Virus record (IMG/VR): IMGVR_UViG_2693429668_000006
Reading direction: 5' to 3' (one strand)
DNA length: 64,000 nucleotides
DNA from: a virus
Taxonomy: Duplodnaviria; Heunggongvirae; Uroviricota; Caudoviricetes
Part shown: piece after piece, positions 23,808 through 50,047 of the stretch
Layout: every line of letters begins with the position of its first letter
How positions within the stretch are numbered: position 1 is the stretch's first letter
Translations under genes and position numbers: made by a program
The notes under the pieces: generated by a model
Told to the model about the DNA's origin: nothing
What the model saw: the letters and a program-made list of their open reading frames with translations, nothing else
The model's database searches: none

Positions 23808-26147
23808 TTACTCTTCTACTGACTCGGTGGGGTTGTCTTTTGCTCTTCGGTCGTCGATTGCCTGCAAAGCCGCAATGATTTCAGCCAGTGGCTTCTCCCG
23901 ATACATCTCGACGATCTGCGATTTGGTGTATTTCTTGTCACCAATTTCAACTCGCCCGCTGGCGTTCTTTGGCAGGTATCCTTCTTCCAGCATGTACTCG
24001 ACGAGCGATTCGATAACGTCGAGGCCACGAGTAGGATCGAAGTAGAATTTCCAGGTGCATTTGCCATACGGTGGTGCAACTTTGTTTTTGATGCATTCTG
24101 CGCCTACGTCCTGGCCGATCTTCTCTTTACCATCCTTCATCACCGATGCACCAAGACGGATACGTACAGAAGCGTAGAACTTCGGTGAATCTCCACCTGG
24201 CGACGTAGTAGGGTCGCCAAACATTACACCGATTTTTGTGCGAACCTGATTCAAGAAGATGATGCAGGCGTTGTATTTGCGTGCCCACAAAGCCAGAGTA
24301 GGGAAGTTCGCACTCGTCGCACGAGCCAGTGCCGTATTGTCGTTCATGTTTAGCTGATCTTTGTCTTTGGCTGTGCCTTCAGCCATCTTTTCGAACTTCT
24401 CGGCTTTGGAGTTCGGAACCATAGACGCAAGAGAGTCAGCCACGATACAGATAGGTGCTGATTCGGGGATAAGCTCTTCATCACGAACCAATTTAAGTAT
24501 TGTGCCGATCAACTCTACAGAGTCTTCGAAGGTATCTGGCTGCTTGTATACCCACTGACCGTCATCCTCATCTGCGTTCAGGCCATTGGCTACAGCCAGG
24601 CCAACGTCAAAACTGTTTTCATGATCGAGGAATACCGCCAGACCATCTTGTTTTTGAGCGGAGATCATCGCTGCTGTTGCAAGGAATGTGTTGTGGCTGA
24701 TAATCCCGTTAGACCAGAAAGAGTGTGTTTCCGGCATCGCTACGTCGAACGTTGGTGCTTCACCTTCCTCAATAGCCACGACTTCGTCGTAGAACAAGTT
24801 AGAGCCAATTACCGCTGCCAGTTGTGCAAACAGATGCTCGTTAAAACGATTCTTTCTGCCAATGAAGGAGACATAGATTTCTCGCAGTTTGTCTATTCCG
24901 ACACGATCGCCGCGGCCAATAACGTGGTCTACCAGAGCGTAGTCTTCACGGGTGGTCTTGGTGAGCGACTCGTAGAGTGATTTCACTAAGCCGCTGATGT
25001 GCGGAACATAGCCTGAGTAAGTGCGGTCAAAACCAATGTCCCGTTTGGTTGCCACTGATAAACGTGCCGGAGATTCGAAACCAATCGTTGACAGAAAAAG
25101 GTCGTAATTAGAGCCACTGAATGACAGCCGGTAATATGTATTTTCATAACCCGCGACGTGTTTTTCAGAGATAGTTGACGTAATCCCCAGATTCAGGAGC
25201 ATGAGGCGAATTTGCTGTAGCAGCAGCCCACTCGCGCTCACAACCTCAATGCAGCGACCATCATTGACGTGGCATTCCAGCTCAAAGTAGCCGCGAAGGA
25301 ATGCAATTTGAGCCTCGCTATTGGCGCGACGCACACTCAACGGAACCTGCTTGCCAGCAGCTTTCTCATACTCCAGACCATATTCTTTAAAAAGCAGCGA
25401 ACGCACCTCTTTGCTAAACAGCACATGGTCTTCCGAGCCGTTATGTTTTCTCGTAACTGGCATCTTGTCTGATACCAGCGAAATGAGGCGGTAGTACTCA
25501 TCCTTGATGAAAGGATCTGTGTTAGAAAAATTCACTGAATTTTCAGAGGCCACGTATCCGTCAGCAATTAAATAGCCCATCAGTTTTGCGATATTGGCAT
25601 CCAGGTGCTGATCGCCGAATTGATGTGTGCCAACCATTGAAGGAATCGTGTCGCCTACACTGATTTTTTCAGCATGTCGCCAGACGACATTACCTAAGTC
25701 GTCAACCACACGGATTGGGTGACGGAACGTAGCCTCGATATAACCGCCTGATGCCAGCTTAATACGCTTGAATTTGCGACGGTTGTTCCATGTCAGGTGT
25801 GAGGTCTTCTCTATCACGCCATTTTCATTGATGAGTCCAACGTTATGCTCTACATCGCGAGTAGTGCATGTCGCTTTGTACCCTTCAATCTCAAACAACT
25901 CTTTCACTGTTACCATTCCACGCTCCGTCAGCAGCATGGTGTCTGCGGTAACACATTTCCCCGCGCTTGGTGGCCCGAATACTTCTACGATACGACCACA
26001 TGGGAAACCGCCATCGTAACGACCGGAAATAGCTTTGTTTAACGGAGGAAAGCCTGTGTCAATCCAATGAGTTACTTTCTGAATTTCGTCGTTGCTACCG
26101 ATTTTCTTTTTCAGAGCAAGTGCCAGTGCGGATTTTCCTTTTGCCAT
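23808..26147 (-). CDS. recA: RecA-like recombinase precursor interrupted by an intein
   Basis: exteins (64 + 293 aa) carry RecA motifs GRIVEVFGPPSAGK|TF, FLDHENSFD, IIFLNQVR; insertion inside Walker A. Confidence 0.8.
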   Translation of the reverse strand: MAKGKSALALALKKKIGSNDEIQKVTHWIDTGFPPLNKAISGRYDGGFPCGRIVEVFGPPSAGKCVTADTMLLTERGMVTVKELFEIEGYKATCTTRDVEHNVGLINENGVIEKTSHLTWNNRRKFKRIKLASGGYIEATFRHPIRVVDDLGNVVWRHAEKISVGDTIPSMVGTHQFGDQHLDANIAKLMGYLIADGYVASENSVNFSNTDPFIKDEYYRLISLVSDKMPVTRKHNGSEDHVLFSKEVRSLLFKEYGLEYEKAAGKQVPLSVRRANSEAQIAFLRGYFELECHVNDGRCIEVVSASGLLLQQIRLMLLNLGITSTISEKHVAGYENTYYRLSFSGSNYDLFLSTIGFESPARLSVATKRDIGFDRTYSGYVPHISGLVKSLYESLTKTTREDYALVDHVIGRGDRVGIDKLREIYVSFIGRKNRFNEHLFAQLAAVIGSNLFYDEVVAIEEGEAPTFDVAMPETHSFWSNGIISHNTFLATAAMISAQKQDGLAVFLDHENSFDVGLAVANGLNADEDDGQWVYKQPDTFEDSVELIGTILKLVRDEELIPESAPICIVADSLASMVPNSKAEKFEKMAEGTAKDKDQLNMNDNTALARATSANFPTLALWARKYNACIIFLNQVRTKIGVMFGDPTTSPGGDSPKFYASVRIRLGASVMKDGKEKIGQDVGAECIKNKVAPPYGKCTWKFYFDPTRGLDVIESLVEYMLEEGYLPKNASGRVEIGDKKYTKSQIVEMYREKPLAEIIAALQAIDDRRAKDNPTESVEE
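24690..25955 (-). mobile_element. intein (422 aa) with LAGLIDADG homing-endonuclease domain
   Basis: starts Cys (CVTADTML...), ends ...SHN followed by Thr; LAGLIDADG-type motifs LMGYLIADGYV and AFLRGYFELE. Confidence 0.8.
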
Positions 26148-26149
26148 GA

Positions 26150-26422
26150 TCAGGCTCCTTTTGTTTCGTTGATTCGTTTTAAAGCGGCGGATTCGTCTAA
26201 TACAATCGCATCGTGATTAAGGAGTCTGGATACACGAGCGAGGATTTTTACGACCTGCTCGCTGACTAATCCAAACTCGCGATCTGTCGCTTTCATTCCG
26301 GCAGCGCCTAGAATTGACGGCAGTGCGATGACAGCGTACTCACCGTGATAAAAGACAATCTCTTTTGCCAGTTGGGTGGGGGTGGTTGTAGCGCCATTAA
26401 TAATCGATTTAAGCATTAGCAA
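26150..26422 (-). CDS. hypothetical protein (90 aa)
   Basis: ORF track. Confidence 0.4.
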   Translation of the reverse strand: MLMLKSIINGATTTPTQLAKEIVFYHGEYAVIALPSILGAAGMKATDREFGLVSEQVVKILARVSRLLNHDAIVLDESAALKRINETKGA

Positions 26423-27411
26423 TACCTTTCGAATGGAAGAACAAACACTTCAAGGTCTTCAAGGAACGAACGGAAATTCAGCTCGTAGCACAGTTGCTCG
26501 AATGCTTTCACGTCACGATTGCCTTTGATTGTTTCGATTTCGGTAGGCGGAAACTTCGTCTCAATCAGGTTCATTAGCGTGATGTTTCTCTTGAACGCTT
26601 CGAGCATTCGACAGCCTGTTTTCTCGTTGAAGGCATTCTTCGCTAGTTTGTTGAAGGCGGTCTTATGACGCCCTTTATTAACCACGATTGAGCCGTCGTT
26701 GATGCCGCGTACCATCGTTGCGACACTTCCCCATTCATGCAGCAGCTCTTTCGCACCGCCAGCACCAATGCCTCCAACACCGCTAATGTTGTCCGAGTTA
26801 TCGCCTTGTAATGCTTTTGCTTCCAAAAATGCGCGAGGCGTGGCGAATCCTGTCAGCTCCGCAAATTGCTCAAAATTAACCTGCTTGTTTTTGGCGTCTT
26901 CACGCAGGCTTACCCAGCTTACGTTTTCACGAACTAACTGAAGCCAGTCGCTATCGCCTGTTAACAGATAGATGTGTTCAACGGTTGGCTGCGGTGCCAT
27001 GCGGGATACCAGCAGCCCGGCCAGATCATCCGCTTCTGCATCTTTTGCAATGAGTTGGGTAACTCCAAGCGCGGTCATCATTTTGAGGATGTATGGCTTC
27101 TGGATAGCAAAGCCTTCCTTCATCTTTTTCATATCAGGATCGTCGTCGCGATTTGCTTTGTAGTCCGGGTAAAAGTCGCGACGCTTGTCACTAAATCCAT
27201 CCCAAAGAATCATAGGTCGGGCATGGAGGATGGAGGCATAACGACGGACGTTCTTAACAAAGCCGAAAGCAGCCTGTACTTCCATTTCGCCGTTGTGCAA
27301 TTTGTCAGATTGTTGGTGGTAATAACCCAGGCTATTGCCATCTACGAAGAGATAATTCACCGGTACATTCCTTCCAAAAAGTAAGGCGTCCGTAGACGCC
27401 TTACTGGTCAC
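26416..27411 (-). CDS. 5-prime-3-prime exonuclease / flap endonuclease (FEN family)
   Basis: N-terminal YLFVDGNSLGY, acidic cluster DAEADDLAG, H3TH-like C-terminal region. Confidence 0.75.
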   Translation of the reverse strand: MTSKASTDALLFGRNVPVNYLFVDGNSLGYYHQQSDKLHNGEMEVQAAFGFVKNVRRYASILHARPMILWDGFSDKRRDFYPDYKANRDDDPDMKKMKEGFAIQKPYILKMMTALGVTQLIAKDAEADDLAGLLVSRMAPQPTVEHIYLLTGDSDWLQLVRENVSWVSLREDAKNKQVNFEQFAELTGFATPRAFLEAKALQGDNSDNISGVGGIGAGGAKELLHEWGSVATMVRGINDGSIVVNKGRHKTAFNKLAKNAFNEKTGCRMLEAFKRNITLMNLIETKFPPTEIETIKGNRDVKAFEQLCYELNFRSFLEDLEVFVLPFERYC

Positions 27412-27420
27412 GTAATGGGA

Positions 27421-28449
27421 TTACAGAGAGTCCAGCTCTCTCAGTAGGTCATCCAGACCTTCATCTTCCGTCGCAGATGCGGCTGCTACAGATGTCGCTG
27501 CGACTGCTTCAGACTCTTTGACTGATACTGCAACGGCAGCGGAACTTGCTTCTGGTTTAAATTCAGTTTCAACGGCACGGAGGATTTCTTCATCAACCAG
27601 ACTGGTTGGTTCAGAAGCCGGTGTGTGCGCGGTTGCTACAGCCGTCGCTCCTTCTGTATGACCAGTGACAGAGCCAAATCCAGGTAGTGCCGCAGCCGAT
27701 GTTTTCGCGGTTGAGGAAATTGCTGGTGCAGATGCTGCGGCAGTTGGTGCAGCGATGCCAATCAGACGACCCATAGTGCGAACTGTCGACAGAAGACGAG
27801 TTTCATCAGCCTGATTTGCGTATGCGATCAGATCATGCTGGGTGTTCCAGAATTTATCTTCGATATCGCCTTTGTAGACTTTACGCTTAGGCGAGACGTC
27901 ATATTTGGTATCGCGACCAGAGCCAGTACGTTTAATCAGGAATGCGTAGCCTTCCTCTTTGCTCAGTGGATTGCCGATATCATCAGCGATGTCTTCGGTG
28001 ATTGCTTTGCAGATATCATCGAATACAGTAGACGGCAGCTCGATTAACTGGCATTTCTCAGCATCTGCGAAATCCTCACGAGCAGAAAGAATGCCGTTGA
28101 CCAGGTAGCGAGGAGTGGCACGCATTTGACCGATGCGTTCTTCCATTGCTTTGTTACCCTTGTGACGAGCGCGACCTTCCATAACCATTTCGCATAGCTG
28201 ACAAGCGCGACCGTGAGTATGTTGCTCACAAATATAAGCGTTGGTTGCTTCTTTACCTTCCTCGTTCTGATACTTAACGTAGTGCATACCGAAAGTCTGG
28301 AAGAACTTACCGTTTGGGTCGTCTTTATTCGGGAAGATGCGGATATAGTTGACGCCGTCTTTTAAGCGAGTCAGATCAACGTTGTTGCCACGTTTGGCGG
28401 CAATGTCTTCACGAGTTTTGTTAAGCAAATCAAGTAATGTCTTAGACAT
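27421..28449 (-). CDS. single-stranded DNA-binding protein, T4 gp32-like
   Basis: VNYIRIFPNKDD... collinear with gp32 core; H/C zinc-ligand cluster (CEQHTHGRACQLC); acidic C-terminal tail (DEGLDDLLRELDSL). Confidence 0.6.
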   Translation of the reverse strand: MSKTLLDLLNKTREDIAAKRGNNVDLTRLKDGVNYIRIFPNKDDPNGKFFQTFGMHYVKYQNEEGKEATNAYICEQHTHGRACQLCEMVMEGRARHKGNKAMEERIGQMRATPRYLVNGILSAREDFADAEKCQLIELPSTVFDDICKAITEDIADDIGNPLSKEEGYAFLIKRTGSGRDTKYDVSPKRKVYKGDIEDKFWNTQHDLIAYANQADETRLLSTVRTMGRLIGIAAPTAAASAPAISSTAKTSAAALPGFGSVTGHTEGATAVATAHTPASEPTSLVDEEILRAVETEFKPEASSAAVAVSVKESEAVAATSVAAASATEDEGLDDLLRELDSL

Positions 28450-38651: not shown

Positions 38652-39038
38652 ATGTCTGATAACAAGATTGAATTTATAGAAAGTCGCTACGCTGCTTTTA
38701 TCGCAGGGTTGATTGAATCCTCACCTATGAGCCAGGCCCAGATAGCCAAAACAATTGGGTATAAAAACGCCAACAACCTTTCTTTAATTAAAAGCGGCAA
38801 AATTCCTTTGCCTATCGATAAGGTTCGTCCGCTGGCGCTGGCACTGGGCATTGAGCCAAGTCGTCTTATGATGATGGTGCTGGAAGAACGCCAACCCGAA
38901 CTCGCAGCATTTTTATACAAAGAAGGCACTGCTCCTCTTAACGAGGACGAAAAACAGGTTCTTGCTGCATATAACGAGCGATTCGGTAAAGAGAAAGGCG
39001 CATCACAAAAGGTTGTTGAGGCCATAAAGTCTCTATGA
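38652..39038 (+). CDS. HTH DNA-binding regulator (XRE-like)
   Basis: helix-turn-helix segment SQAQIAKTIGYKNANNLSLIKSGK. Confidence 0.5.
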   Translation: MSDNKIEFIESRYAAFIAGLIESSPMSQAQIAKTIGYKNANNLSLIKSGKIPLPIDKVRPLALALGIEPSRLMMMVLEERQPELAAFLYKEGTAPLNEDEKQVLAAYNERFGKEKGASQKVVEAIKSL

Positions 39039-40136
39039 AAAATTTACACGAATAAGCTCTGTTGATAGACGATCTCCCTTAAATTTGTGGTCAATTTCGT
39101 CTAAATCCGGTTGCTCTACGATTGATGCGATGTACGTCGAGAAACTTTCTAAGGCGTCTCGCATCTCGTCCATATAATCGTGCCGGTCGTAGACCCGATC
39201 TATCCCCTCAAGACTGTGGTTCATGATTTTACGTGATACCTCCTGGCTTATGCCTAATGCTGGGAAGTAACTACGCGCAGTACGGCGCAAATCTCGGGGT
39301 GTAAATGGCTCAAGCTCCATCAGTTCTGGTCGTTCCAGAATACGACGTAATGCCTGGGCTATTGCCACTTTAGACATAGGAAGGTCTTTCCCGATTTTTT
39401 TATTCGAAGGCACGAGCCACTGGCTGTCTTTACCATATTCGAACAACTCTTCAATACAAGTGCGCATTAATGAGCTTAAAGGCAGAGAATGCTCACGGGC
39501 AGATTTGTTCCTCTTGCCTTGATTCCAAACCCCACGCTTAAGATTGAACTCACTTTTTTTAGCCCGCAGTACTTCGTCAGGTCGTCTTGCGGATACAAGA
39601 CATAGCCTGGCCGCCCATTTTGTACCAGCGCACACATTGAAGTAGTCCCATATATTCCAGAACACCCATACCTCTGCGTCGGTCAGCTTCCGCTCGCGAG
39701 GTGTGGGCTTTGCGCCACCGGCAACTTTGTTAAGTGACATATCGTTTAACGGTGACACGTCTATCATCCCCTGGAAGGCGCACCAGCTAAGGAACTGCTT
39801 CATCAGAGAGAAAACGCGGCGGCCCATAACAATTTTGCCATCCAGTATTAGTGGGTTGACCAGTTGGTTCACCATGAACCTATTAATGTCACTTACTTTT
39901 ACATCGGCAATGTGCGGCAAAACATGTATCAAAATACAATGAACAGCGATCTCTGGCCGACGTCTGGTTATCAGCAGAGATAAGCGAGTGAATAACATGA
40001 ATGCGTCCGAGAATCTCATGTCATTGCTGACCTGGGAGATCATAACGGCCTGCATTTGAGATGCTCTTTCGAGATACTCTATCGCCTCTTTTGAGGTGTT
40101 CTCCGCAGCGCGTGCTCTGTCAAAGCTATTTTTCAT
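39033..40136 (-). CDS. tyrosine recombinase / integrase family protein
   Basis: C-terminal catalytic region TPRDLRRTARSY (box II) and NHSLEGIDRVYDRH (His...Tyr); ARRPDEV box I-like. Confidence 0.65.
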   Translation of the reverse strand: MKNSFDRARAAENTSKEAIEYLERASQMQAVMISQVSNDMRFSDAFMLFTRLSLLITRRRPEIAVHCILIHVLPHIADVKVSDINRFMVNQLVNPLILDGKIVMGRRVFSLMKQFLSWCAFQGMIDVSPLNDMSLNKVAGGAKPTPRERKLTDAEVWVFWNIWDYFNVCAGTKWAARLCLVSARRPDEVLRAKKSEFNLKRGVWNQGKRNKSAREHSLPLSSLMRTCIEELFEYGKDSQWLVPSNKKIGKDLPMSKVAIAQALRRILERPELMELEPFTPRDLRRTARSYFPALGISQEVSRKIMNHSLEGIDRVYDRHDYMDEMRDALESFSTYIASIVEQPDLDEIDHKFKGDRLSTELIRVNFS

Positions 40137-40346: not shown

Positions 40347-40592
40347 TTAGAGAGTGGTGACGTATGCAGCCAGTTCTGTGTATCCGCCAATCGGTTGGCC
40401 ATCGATCAGTACCTGGGGGATAGTCTCTACCGGTTTGCCAACAATTTCGCTAAGTTTTTCCTTATCGATACCGGCAGTGGTGATGTCGATGTACTCATAA
40501 TCACCATAGCCGTGTCCCTTTAGTTGTTTCGCCAGCTCGACCGCACGTTTGCAATATGAGCAGTTATCTCGTCCGTAGATAACGATAGTCAT
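40347..40592 (-). CDS. glutaredoxin-like protein (NrdC/NrdH-like)
   Basis: IYGRDNCSYC redox motif, thioredoxin-fold length, ...DGQPIGGY. Confidence 0.7.
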   Translation of the reverse strand: MTIVIYGRDNCSYCKRAVELAKQLKGHGYGDYEYIDITTAGIDKEKLSEIVGKPVETIPQVLIDGQPIGGYTELAAYVTTL

Positions 40593-43159: not shown

Positions 43160-43246
43160 TGGCGGAGAGTAATGGAATCGAACCATCATCGTTTGCACAA
43201 TGGGACGGTTTTCAAGACCGCTTGAGCACCATGCTCCCTACTCTCC
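43160..43246 (-). tRNA. tRNA-Ser (anticodon UGA)
   Basis: 87-nt cloverleaf with encoded CCA, anticodon loop CUUGAAA, long variable arm, T-loop TTCGATT. Confidence 0.8.
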
Positions 43247-43540
43247 AATTGTGTTGTGTGCTCCGTTTCGTGGAGCTAACGGCGGGTGATCAGACCGCAC
43301 CAGGTTGGACGTATTTCAGCGTTATGCTGTTGCAAGAGAGCCAAATTGTGATGGCCGGTGCTGATCTCCGGCATTGCCTACGTTAGCGGCCTTCAGGCAG
43401 TTCATCCGCTTGCTTCTACGTCGCACATCAGCCTGTGCATTCACCACAATGTTGAGAACACTGGTTGTCACGCTGCAACGCAACATTATATTCATAAATT
43501 GGGATATGAACCCGTTACGCCAATGTTCTCAATATTATGT

Positions 43541-43616
43541 TGGTGCCGGTTAACGGACTTGAACCGCTGGCCATTTGCTTACAAAGCGACTGCTCTACCA
43601 ACTGAGCTAAACCGGC
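43541..43616 (-). tRNA. tRNA-Thr (anticodon UGU), two mismatches in anticodon stem
   Basis: 76 nt; acceptor/D/T arms canonical; loop TTTGTAA; possibly pseudo-tRNA. Confidence 0.6.
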
Positions 43617-43620
43617 AATT

Positions 43621-43707
43621 TGGTGGGGAGTGATGGAGTCGAACCACCCGAGTCGCAATGACAGTAGATTTACAGTCTACACCGCTACCTCTACGGACTA
43701 ACTCCCC
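43621..43707 (-). tRNA. tRNA-Tyr (anticodon GUA)
   Basis: 87 nt; anticodon arm GTAGA-CTGTAAA-TCTAC; long variable arm. Confidence 0.8.
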
Positions 43708-43712
43708 TAAAT

Positions 43713-43787
43713 TGGCGATGGTGGGTGGATTCGAACCACCGATCAGTTGGTTAACAGCCAACTGCTCTACCGCTGAGCTACACCATC
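43713..43787 (-). tRNA. tRNA-Asn (anticodon GUU)
   Basis: 75 nt; anticodon arm GTTGG-CTGTTAA-CCAAC; T-arm GGTGG-TTCGAAT-CCACC. Confidence 0.85.
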
Positions 43788-48793: not shown

Positions 48794-50047
48794 ATGAAAC
48801 TCATAAAACCTTCATCGTTGCTGGCATTAGCTTTGCTTTTCGGCCCTGGATACGTTAACGCAGATAATAAACAAACGCTGATCGACGCCGCCACCGCAGG
48901 AGATACCACAGCACAAAGTGCGTTAGGGACAAATTATTTGGATGGGGCTAATGGCTTTGATGAGGATTTAGTAGAGGCCAAGAAGTGGATCGATCTCGCC
49001 GCAGAAAAGGGAGATAAAGTAGCATATTATGCGCTTGGGGTTATGTACACAATTGGGAAGGGAGTAGATAAAGATCTAAATAAGGCCGTTGAGTACTACA
49101 AACTAGCAGGAAATGCTCGCAACGGCAGTGCTTACCATAATCTTGCCGTTATATACGAACGAGGTTGGACTGGAAAGGAGGACCCAGAAGCTGCTTTAAA
49201 ATATCACAAACTAGCAGTAGAAGCTGGTGATATACCTTCGCTTGCCTATATGGGATATTTATATCAATACGGTAAGGGAGTTCCGAAAGATTACAAGAAA
49301 GCATTTAAATCTTATAAAAAGGCTGCGGATAGTGGAAATGCCGCAGGAATGTATGGGCTAGGCTCTATGTACGACGATGGTGTTGCTGTTAAGCGCAACA
49401 ATAAAGAGGCAATTAAGTGGTACTTGAAAGCAGCTGAATTAGGAAATAATAACGCCATGAGCGCGCTTGGATACAAGTTGATGCATGGAGAAGGTATAAA
49501 AAAAGACTATTCGAAGGCCAGAAGTCTTTTAGAACAAGCAATCAGCTTAGGAAATGATTATGCCATGAACCACCTTGGTTACATGTATCTTAAGGGATTG
49601 GGCGTCAAACAGGATTATCGGAAAGCATCAGAGCTTTACCAAGCTGCTTGCGATAAAGATGACGAAACGGGCTGCGAAAACGTTGCTGCAATGAAAGCAA
49701 AAGGTACGTTCCGTTCGCCTTCAAAACAGCAAAATGCCAAATCTGACACTCAGCGACTTATTGCTAAATCCATTGATAAAGGCGTTAACGCAACATTTAC
49801 CTGGCAGGGTGATGATGCCGTCTTCACCGCTAATGATGGCAAAGTTGACTGCACCTTCTTGAAGGATTTTTCAGAGAAAGGAGGCAATCTGGCTACCTCG
49901 TTTGTTTGCACCGATAACGTTCAAATCATCCTGAAGCAATTCAGAGATACCAAGAATGCCTACCTCGCGGTAATGACTGACAACTTCAACACAGAAGTTA
50001 AATCATTTTCGGTCAATGTTTACGTGACTAATACTGGTTCAAACTAA
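48794..50047 (+). CDS. secreted Sel1-repeat (TPR-like) protein
   Basis: signal peptide; tandem ~36-aa Sel1-like repeats (A..LG.MY..G.GV.KD...A..WY.KAA). Confidence 0.65.
   Translation: MKLIKPSSLLALALLFGPGYVNADNKQTLIDAATAGDTTAQSALGTNYLDGANGFDEDLVEAKKWIDLAAEKGDKVAYYALGVMYTIGKGVDKDLNKAVEYYKLAGNARNGSAYHNLAVIYERGWTGKEDPEAALKYHKLAVEAGDIPSLAYMGYLYQYGKGVPKDYKKAFKSYKKAADSGNAAGMYGLGSMYDDGVAVKRNNKEAIKWYLKAAELGNNNAMSALGYKLMHGEGIKKDYSKARSLLEQAISLGNDYAMNHLGYMYLKGLGVKQDYRKASELYQAACDKDDETGCENVAAMKAKGTFRSPSKQQNAKSDTQRLIAKSIDKGVNATFTWQGDDAVFTANDGKVDCTFLKDFSEKGGNLATSFVCTDNVQIILKQFRDTKNAYLAVMTDNFNTEVKSFSVNVYVTNTGSN

Follow-up and report, generated by a model that had tools for sequence, protein, structure and literature searches.

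When the Walker A motif of a recombinase gene is split by several hundred codons of additional sequence, the question arises what the inserted segment is, whether it still moves, and what kind of genetic element carries it. Such a gene lies on the minus strand of the 64,000-nt stretch of viral DNA analysed here (hereafter, the window). The initial annotation had described it as a RecA-like 779-aa reading frame with a 422-aa insert at 24690-25955; the coordinates and counts proved exact, and the strand, previously unstated, can now be added (Table 1). Also present in the sequence are the boundary residues that had been pointed out, i.e. an N-extein ending in GPPSAGK and an insert that starts with Cys and ends with His-Asn followed by Thr: GPPSAGK corresponds to residues 58-64, the Cys65 codon occupies 25955..25953, and the Asn486 codon (24692..24690) is followed by Thr487. 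Within the Walker A motif, GPPSAGK|T, the insert separates Lys64 from Thr487, and Thr487 doubles as the Walker A Thr and the +1 splice nucleophile.

Joining the exteins without the insert gives a protein of 357 aa and 39.0 kDa, with the predicted ligated junction ...GPPSAGK-TFLATAAMISAQK (...SAGK-TFLATAAM...). GPPSAGKT aligns with GPESSGKT of E. coli RecA, Walker A residues 66-73 of that protein, and in RecA numbering the insertion point would therefore follow Lys72 and precede Thr73. The C-extein holds the FLDHENSF sequence and a Walker B-like ICIVADS. A Shine-Dalgarno sequence, AAGGAG, is found about 8 nt 5' of the precursor ATG, and the 90-aa reading frame located upstream stops 2 nt short of the same ATG. 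A tblastn search with the intein against the whole 64,000-nt window revealed neither a second copy nor a close relative.

Table 1. Features of the split recombinase gene and of the genes upstream of it (positions in the window)
Feature	Position	Strand	Remarks
Precursor gene, predicted RecA/UvsX-family recombinase split by intein	23808..26147	minus	779 aa, 86.5 kDa
N-extein, aa 1-64	25956..26147	minus	GPPSAGK end (Walker A) at 25956..25976
Predicted intein, aa 65-486	24690..25955	minus	422 aa, 47.5 kDa; HINT splicing domain split by LAGLIDADG homing-endonuclease domain
C-extein, aa 487-779 and stop codon	23808..24689	minus	RecA core; first residue Thr487
Block A, CVTADTMLLTERG	25917..25955	minus	starts CVTADT; Cys65 is intein Cys1, predicted first nucleophile
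Block B, GGYIEATFRHPIRV	25707..25748	minus	ATFRHPIRV; TxxH motif is TFRH
LAGLIDADG motif 1, LMGYLIADGY, aa 189-198	25554..25583	minus	Asp at catalytic acidic position
LAGLIDADG motif 2, FLRGYFELECHV, aa 283-294	25266..25301	minus	LRGYFELEC; Glu at catalytic acidic position
Blocks F and G, PTFDVAMPETHSFWSNG-IISHN	24690..24755	minus	penultimate His485, terminal Asn486; IISHN|T
90-aa ORF, upstream recombination-module gene	26150..26422	minus	ORF call
5'-3' exonuclease, upstream	26416..27411	minus	name from annotation of closely related elements
T4 gp32-like SSB, upstream	27421..28449	minus	name from annotation of closely related elements

The insert contains the full set of residues of a class-1 intein, namely Cys1, the TxxH motif, block F, and the terminal His-Asn followed by Thr. 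Cys1 is conserved across all aligned relatives, in which block B takes the form AT-x-x-HP. A search with intein profiles, of the kind proposed as a check, gave scores above the cut-offs: Pfam Intein_splicing (PF14890) at 46.6 bits vs 35.8 (E 4e-12), NCBIfam TIGR01445 for the N-terminal part at 35.5 vs 24.5, and TIGR01443 for the C-terminal part at 17.8 vs 15.6. The two LAGLIDADG-type motifs reported earlier are likewise present, and the insert is matched by Pfam LAGLIDADG_3 (PF14528; E 4e-18). Profile matches of this strength, like that of the joined exteins to RecA given below, are well outside what chance would produce. An AlphaFold2 model of the intein (mean pLDDT 80.3, pTM 0.85) finds its best Foldseek match in the TliVMA intein (7qss; E 8e-21, TM 0.70), with the endonuclease-containing inteins PI-PfuI, PI-PkoII and PI-SceI matched as well. 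In particular, the central endonuclease domain of the model matches I-DmoI (E ~4e-4), its LAGLIDADG fold is also found in the corresponding domains of the TliVMA intein, PI-PfuI and PI-PkoII, and among the matches to the splicing domain are mini-inteins, such as that of Pho RadA, and the Hedgehog autoprocessing domain. Boundary residues, sequence blocks, the predicted HINT and LAGLIDADG folds and the precise empty-site alleles described below all agree with a LAGLIDADG intein in the P-loop, as originally proposed, and support its assignment to the canonical class 1, with splicing as the predicted outcome. Judging by motifs and fold, the endonuclease would be of the monomeric double-motif LAGLIDADG type and is probably active.

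The identity of the interrupted protein required some revision. Its membership in the RecA superfamily was upheld: the joined exteins, which as claimed are RecA-sized, match Pfam RecA (PF00154) with E 2e-42, and match better after removal of the insert. The designation "RecA-like" does not extend to the housekeeping RecA, since the joined exteins score 153.7 bits with the equivalog model TIGR02012, vs a cut-off of 325.3. The model NF007072 ("intein-containing recombinase RecA"), which we take to represent the mycobacterial type of RecA intein, gives 100.8 bits vs a cut-off of 1024. The host protein falls into phrog_97, "UvsX-like recombinase" (E 1e-91), and this assignment, together with the score below the RecA equivalog cut-off, suggests that it is best named a phage RecA/UvsX-family recombinase rather than a bacterial housekeeping RecA. 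In the public annotation most copies bear only the PGAP label "LAGLIDADG family homing endonuclease", and some orthologous plasmid copies are called "intein-containing recombinase RecA" despite the score of the present protein below the cut-off of NF007072.

The window belongs to an SSU5-type phage-plasmid. Its recombinase gene shares 98-99% identity with the copies in the Escherichia phages PhiR41_1 and Cyrano, the latter being the pLF82 phage-plasmid (PMC9928086), and many E. coli plasmids carry a gene listed as 100.0% identical (rounded). It is surrounded by a T4-like recombination module, which comprises, in addition to the upstream genes of Table 1, a mediator that the Cyrano annotation calls UvsY-like. 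One of the related elements, NZ_CP103659.1, has the gene listed as 100.0% identical (rounded) and elsewhere differs from the window by indels and cargo.

Comparison with intein-less alleles of relatives, another check proposed at the outset, revealed deletion boundaries exactly as predicted. The phage CMS-2020a carries an uninterrupted allele whose protein is identical to the predicted spliced product in 357 of 357 residues, and the 18 DNA differences between this allele and the exteins of the window are all synonymous. The gene is present in 250 of 5,426 complete E. coli genomes, plasmid-borne every time. Intein DNA occurs in 120 of these 250 genomes (near full length in about 115) and the uninterrupted junction in 124, hence an occupancy of about 48%. 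In PLSDB the intein was found in 248 plasmids, with a full-length reading frame in 240, and the hosts belong to Escherichia, Klebsiella, Enterobacter, Citrobacter, Shigella, Cronobacter, Kluyvera and Salmonella. Two partial intein matches (H99 and H100), considered as degenerating mini-inteins, were rejected: they are IS-truncated gene remnants beside transposases and are therefore uninformative on the homing cycle.

The intein and the gene that it interrupts appear to have different histories. Between the window and the Klebsiella and Enterobacter elements the intein DNA is 97% identical, vs 80-86% for the exteins. The dS of the intein is 0.09, whereas that of the C-extein is about 1.5 in all three Klebsiella/Enterobacter comparisons; the N-extein dS amounts to 1.0 in the Enterobacter comparison and is saturated, hence uncomputable, in the two with Klebsiella. 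These values suggest that, across genera, the age of the flanks exceeds that of the intein more than 10-fold. The converse is seen in an E. albertii plasmid, where the exteins are near identical (dS 0.02-0.08) and the intein is more diverged (dS 0.225). The extein of the window differs by 8 nt from an intein-less allele and by 34 nt from the intein-bearing allele of Cyrano, and thus the presence of the intein does not track the extein tree. Purifying selection acts on the endonuclease region (dN/dS 0.11-0.18); the corresponding values are 0.03-0.08 for the N-terminal splicing region and 0.01-0.02 for the exteins.

The insertion site itself seems to bear traces of transfer. The junction reads GCG GGG AAA|ACA in all five intein-bearing alleles, and the Thr+1 codon is ACG or ACC in all six intein-less ones, an association that comprises 11 alleles from about three lineages. 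In the intein-less p503025_100 the wobble base of the Thr+1 codon is the sole difference from the flanks of the window over the first 680 nt, and the sequence expected from precise excision over ±60 nt is absent from all intein-less E. coli alleles. The co-transferred flank spans about 3-16 nt, a length typical of gene conversion initiated by a break rather than of long-tract recombination. Taken together, the discordant divergence, the selection values and the junction codons fit such conversion with short co-converted tracts, and are not in themselves proof of endonuclease activity. The polymorphism of the site, the apparent youth of the intein relative to its host gene and the purifying selection together point to recent, probably ongoing, homing.

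Only 13 matches emerged from a word-indexed search for proteins similar to the intein; they served to assess the conservation of the site and are too few for a phylogeny. The closest non-enterobacterial proteins (37-45% identity) are inteins that likewise interrupt RecA proteins at GK|C...HN|T(T); one of them, on a 550-kb contig, directly adjoins canonical RecA sequence. Among these RecA P-loop inteins the stretch of LAGLIDADG motif 1 is missing in P0007 and P0012 and degenerate in P0013. A Cys at intein position 30 is shared by the endonuclease-retaining relatives and P0007, and is not found in P0012 and P0013.

We estimate at roughly 85% the probability that the locus harbors what these data collectively suggest: a class-1 intein of the canonical kind that houses a double-motif LAGLIDADG endonuclease, probably active, and that separates Lys from Thr in the Walker A motif of an SSU5-type phage-plasmid recombinase. 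The loss of motif 1 in the three relatives mentioned above demonstrates that the family does degenerate, and one may ask if the present copy is a splicing-competent intein with a dead or dying endonuclease, inherited vertically and owing any movement between phage-plasmids to general homologous recombination. Recombination among SSU5-like elements is extensive, as is evident from the mosaic distribution of extein differences, and in principle the intein could be transferred between them by ordinary homologous recombination, with no help from the endonuclease. However, this explanation appears unlikely given that the window copy keeps both acidic residues at the LAGLIDADG catalytic positions, that its endonuclease region is under selective constraint, that the intein seems much younger than its flanks across genera, and that the short co-transferred flank is typical of break-initiated gene conversion.

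Alternatively, the fact that most copies are known to PGAP only as homing endonucleases could be taken to mean that the precursor no longer splices, and that the resulting non-functional recombinase is tolerated since the host RecA substitutes for it. This is very improbable: the splicing residues are all intact, the N-terminal splicing half is strongly constrained and the exteins even more so, and the full-length reading frame persists in about 115 E. coli genomes and 240 PLSDB plasmids. A further reading, in which the insert would be an accessory domain native to the recombinase and no mobile intein at all, is practically inconceivable. Its being in frame is all that speaks for such a domain; on the other hand, the insert splits the Walker A motif, exhibits the motifs and the fold of an intein, and is missing, with precise boundaries, from alleles as common as the occupied ones. 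One of the two outcomes that had been named as fatal to the intein interpretation, a native domain present in all homologs and devoid of intein blocks, is not what was found, and the empty-site alleles rule out the accessory domain. Finally, it is tantalizing to consider the intein as more than a passenger. Given its position in the P-loop of the element's own recombinase, conditional (e.g. redox-sensitive) splicing could gate the activity of that enzyme to a particular state, e.g. lytic growth or stress, and in parallel the endonuclease could be turned by one SSU5-type phage-plasmid against an incompatible one with which it competes in the same cell. The redox route could involve Cys1 and the Cys at position 30. 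The one observation in favor of such roles is conservation, and we consider them improbable.

Returning to the canonical intein with its probably active endonuclease, we infer the steps of splicing, the activity and target of the endonuclease and the place of homing as follows. The 86.5-kDa precursor, which has no continuous P-loop, would be inactive as an ATPase. The HINT domain would promote an N-S acyl shift at Cys65, the thioester would be passed to the hydroxyl of Thr487, and Asn486 would cyclize with the assistance of His485, after which an O-N shift would restore the Lys64-Thr487 bond, so that GPPSAGKT is made whole in a recombinase of 39 kDa and the intein, of 47.5 kDa, is set free. 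These steps follow the established chemistry of inteins. The free intein would then cut uninterrupted alleles in co-resident or co-infecting related phage-plasmids, and repair off the occupied allele would copy in the intein together with a few flanking nucleotides. A consideration against this reading is that the bacterial host does not depend on the recombinase, so that a precursor that splices slowly or not at all might be tolerated.

The closest known system is the element itself. Topilina et al. (2015) listed in their Table 1 a RecA "c2" intein at aa 65-486 in nine enterobacterial strains, E. coli MS 145-7 (E1IXC8) among them, besides two Enterobacter entries (PMC4513877). The insertion point and the coordinates 65-486 are those of the window intein, and there is no sequence difference; for the MS 145-7 plasmid (NZ_CP146657.1) the listed identities are 100.0% (rounded) across the 2340 nt of the gene and 100.0% across the 1266 nt of the intein. 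Thus, the window intein is the RecA c2 intein, known since 2015, and its detection here carries little weight as a discovery: what the element is, where it sits and which residues it spans had all been published. Phages are nowhere mentioned in that work (PMC4513877), whereas here the c2 intein was found solely on SSU5-type phage-plasmids, in a protein that scores under the RecA equivalog cut-off. Our literature searches found no splicing or DNA-cleavage experiment on this intein, and those that combined SSU5 or phage-plasmids with inteins found nothing relevant. What is new is the setting on phage-plasmids, the figure for occupancy and the signs of recent spread. The first of these corrects the usual description, as the "E. 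coli RecA intein" rides on SSU5-type phage-plasmids and not on the chromosome, and identifies these elements as the vehicle that spreads it across Enterobacteriaceae. With about half of the alleles occupied and clear signs of recent transfer, the locus offers a tractable natural system of intein homing in E. coli. The misnaming of most database copies hides a recombinase gene.

The insertion of an intein into a P-loop is in itself not unusual: the literature bears out the earlier remark that this is a typical site in ATPases, and indeed the commonest intein site (PMC4513877, PMC4760082). Among phages of the Herelleviridae, inteins of the same size and architecture, about 32-34% identical over the full length, interrupt the P-loop of RecA in Bacillus phage fHSPT3 (GGGK|C...HN|S) and that of a UvsW-like helicase in Staphylococcus Twort-like phages (NGGK|C...HN|T; annotated in Twillingate, MH321491). 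They differ from the window intein in the Firmicutes hosts of their phages and in their divergent sequence and, in the Twort-like case, by residing in another ATPase family. The Pyrococcus horikoshii RadA intein (point c1, PDB 4e2t) shares the insertion point, Cys1 and Thr+1 (PMC4513877), and its splicing domain is structurally akin to that of the window intein (Foldseek E 8e-5). On the other hand, it is a 172-aa mini-intein without an endonuclease, unrelated in sequence and from a hyperthermophile, and it exhibits extein-dependent conditional splicing; an independent invasion has been argued for (PMC4513877). The RecA inteins of Mycobacterium tuberculosis and M. leprae are likewise LAGLIDADG inteins in a RecA protein, but they occupy sites a and b at the monomer-monomer interface (aa 252 and 206) rather than the P-loop (PMC4513877). 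With the structurally characterized endonuclease-containing inteins, TliVMA (7qss), PI-PfuI (1dq3), PI-PkoII (2cw7) and PI-SceI (1vde), the window intein shares the combined HINT and LAGLIDADG architecture (TM up to 0.70) and a sequence match in the endonuclease domain (E ~1e-7), while identity is only 11-21% and the host proteins and the insertion sites differ.

In most RefSeq copies of the recombinase gene (23808..26147 in the window) the recombinase is concealed, since the names given to them, "LAGLIDADG family homing endonuclease" or "hint domain-containing protein", refer only to the endonuclease or the hint domain. In the record of the Escherichia phage Cyrano the gene is labelled "RecA" and the intein is unmentioned, while in that of PhiR41_1, another Escherichia phage, the orthologous gene is labelled hypothetical. 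Several intein-bearing copies are truncated by IS elements (IS911, IS30, IS3); PGAP names the remnants at two such loci, L007 and L008, "recombinase" or "hypothetical protein", and for the remnant in the E. albertii plasmid the PLSDB gene table shows no gene across it.

Features of the accessory regions and of one truncated gene copy
Feature	Coordinates	Strand	Remarks
Tyrosine integrase	39033..40136	-	adjoins 442-aa ORF
Glutaredoxin-like gene	40347..40592	-	adjoins 442-aa ORF
Low-GC ORF, 442 aa	40732..42060	+	hydrophobic N-terminus
Four-tRNA gene cluster (Ser-TGA, Thr-TGT, Tyr-GTA, Asn-GTT)	43160..43787	-	borne by phage-plasmid
Sel1-repeat protein, 417 aa, seven Sel1 repeats	48794..50047	+	Pfam E 5e-56
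KAP-family P-loop NTPase, 568 aa	53608..55314	-	Pfam E 6.6e-6
IS-truncated gene copy (L006), E. albertii plasmid NZ_CP034165.1	1309..3079

The window diverges from the related plasmid NZ_CP103659.1 beginning roughly at the 442-aa ORF, for which searches of Pfam and PADLOC returned no matches. The KAP-family NTPase gene, with a low GC content of about 0.35, looks like variable cargo. In roughly the corresponding region of NZ_CP103659.1 a LEM-3-like GIY-YIG gene is annotated, placed between the genes of a DnaB-like helicase and MipZ. Among the candidate defence families of PADLOC, the NTPase hits PDC-S49 at E 2e-21. The Sel1-repeat gene, placed amid replication genes, is a probable moron or accessory gene, and the N-terminus of its product resembles a signal peptide.

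Within the intein (24690..25955, minus strand), residue 30, counted from the first splice nucleophile Cys1, is a Cys (Cys94 of the ORF). This residue is a candidate partner of Cys1 in a possible redox switch. Among the related RecA P-loop inteins, those that retain LAGLIDADG motif 1 have a Cys at about this position, as does P0007, which lacks the stretch of that motif; two others, P0012 and P0013, have none there. The intein of the Bacillus phage fHSPT3 likewise possesses a Cys about 30 residues in.
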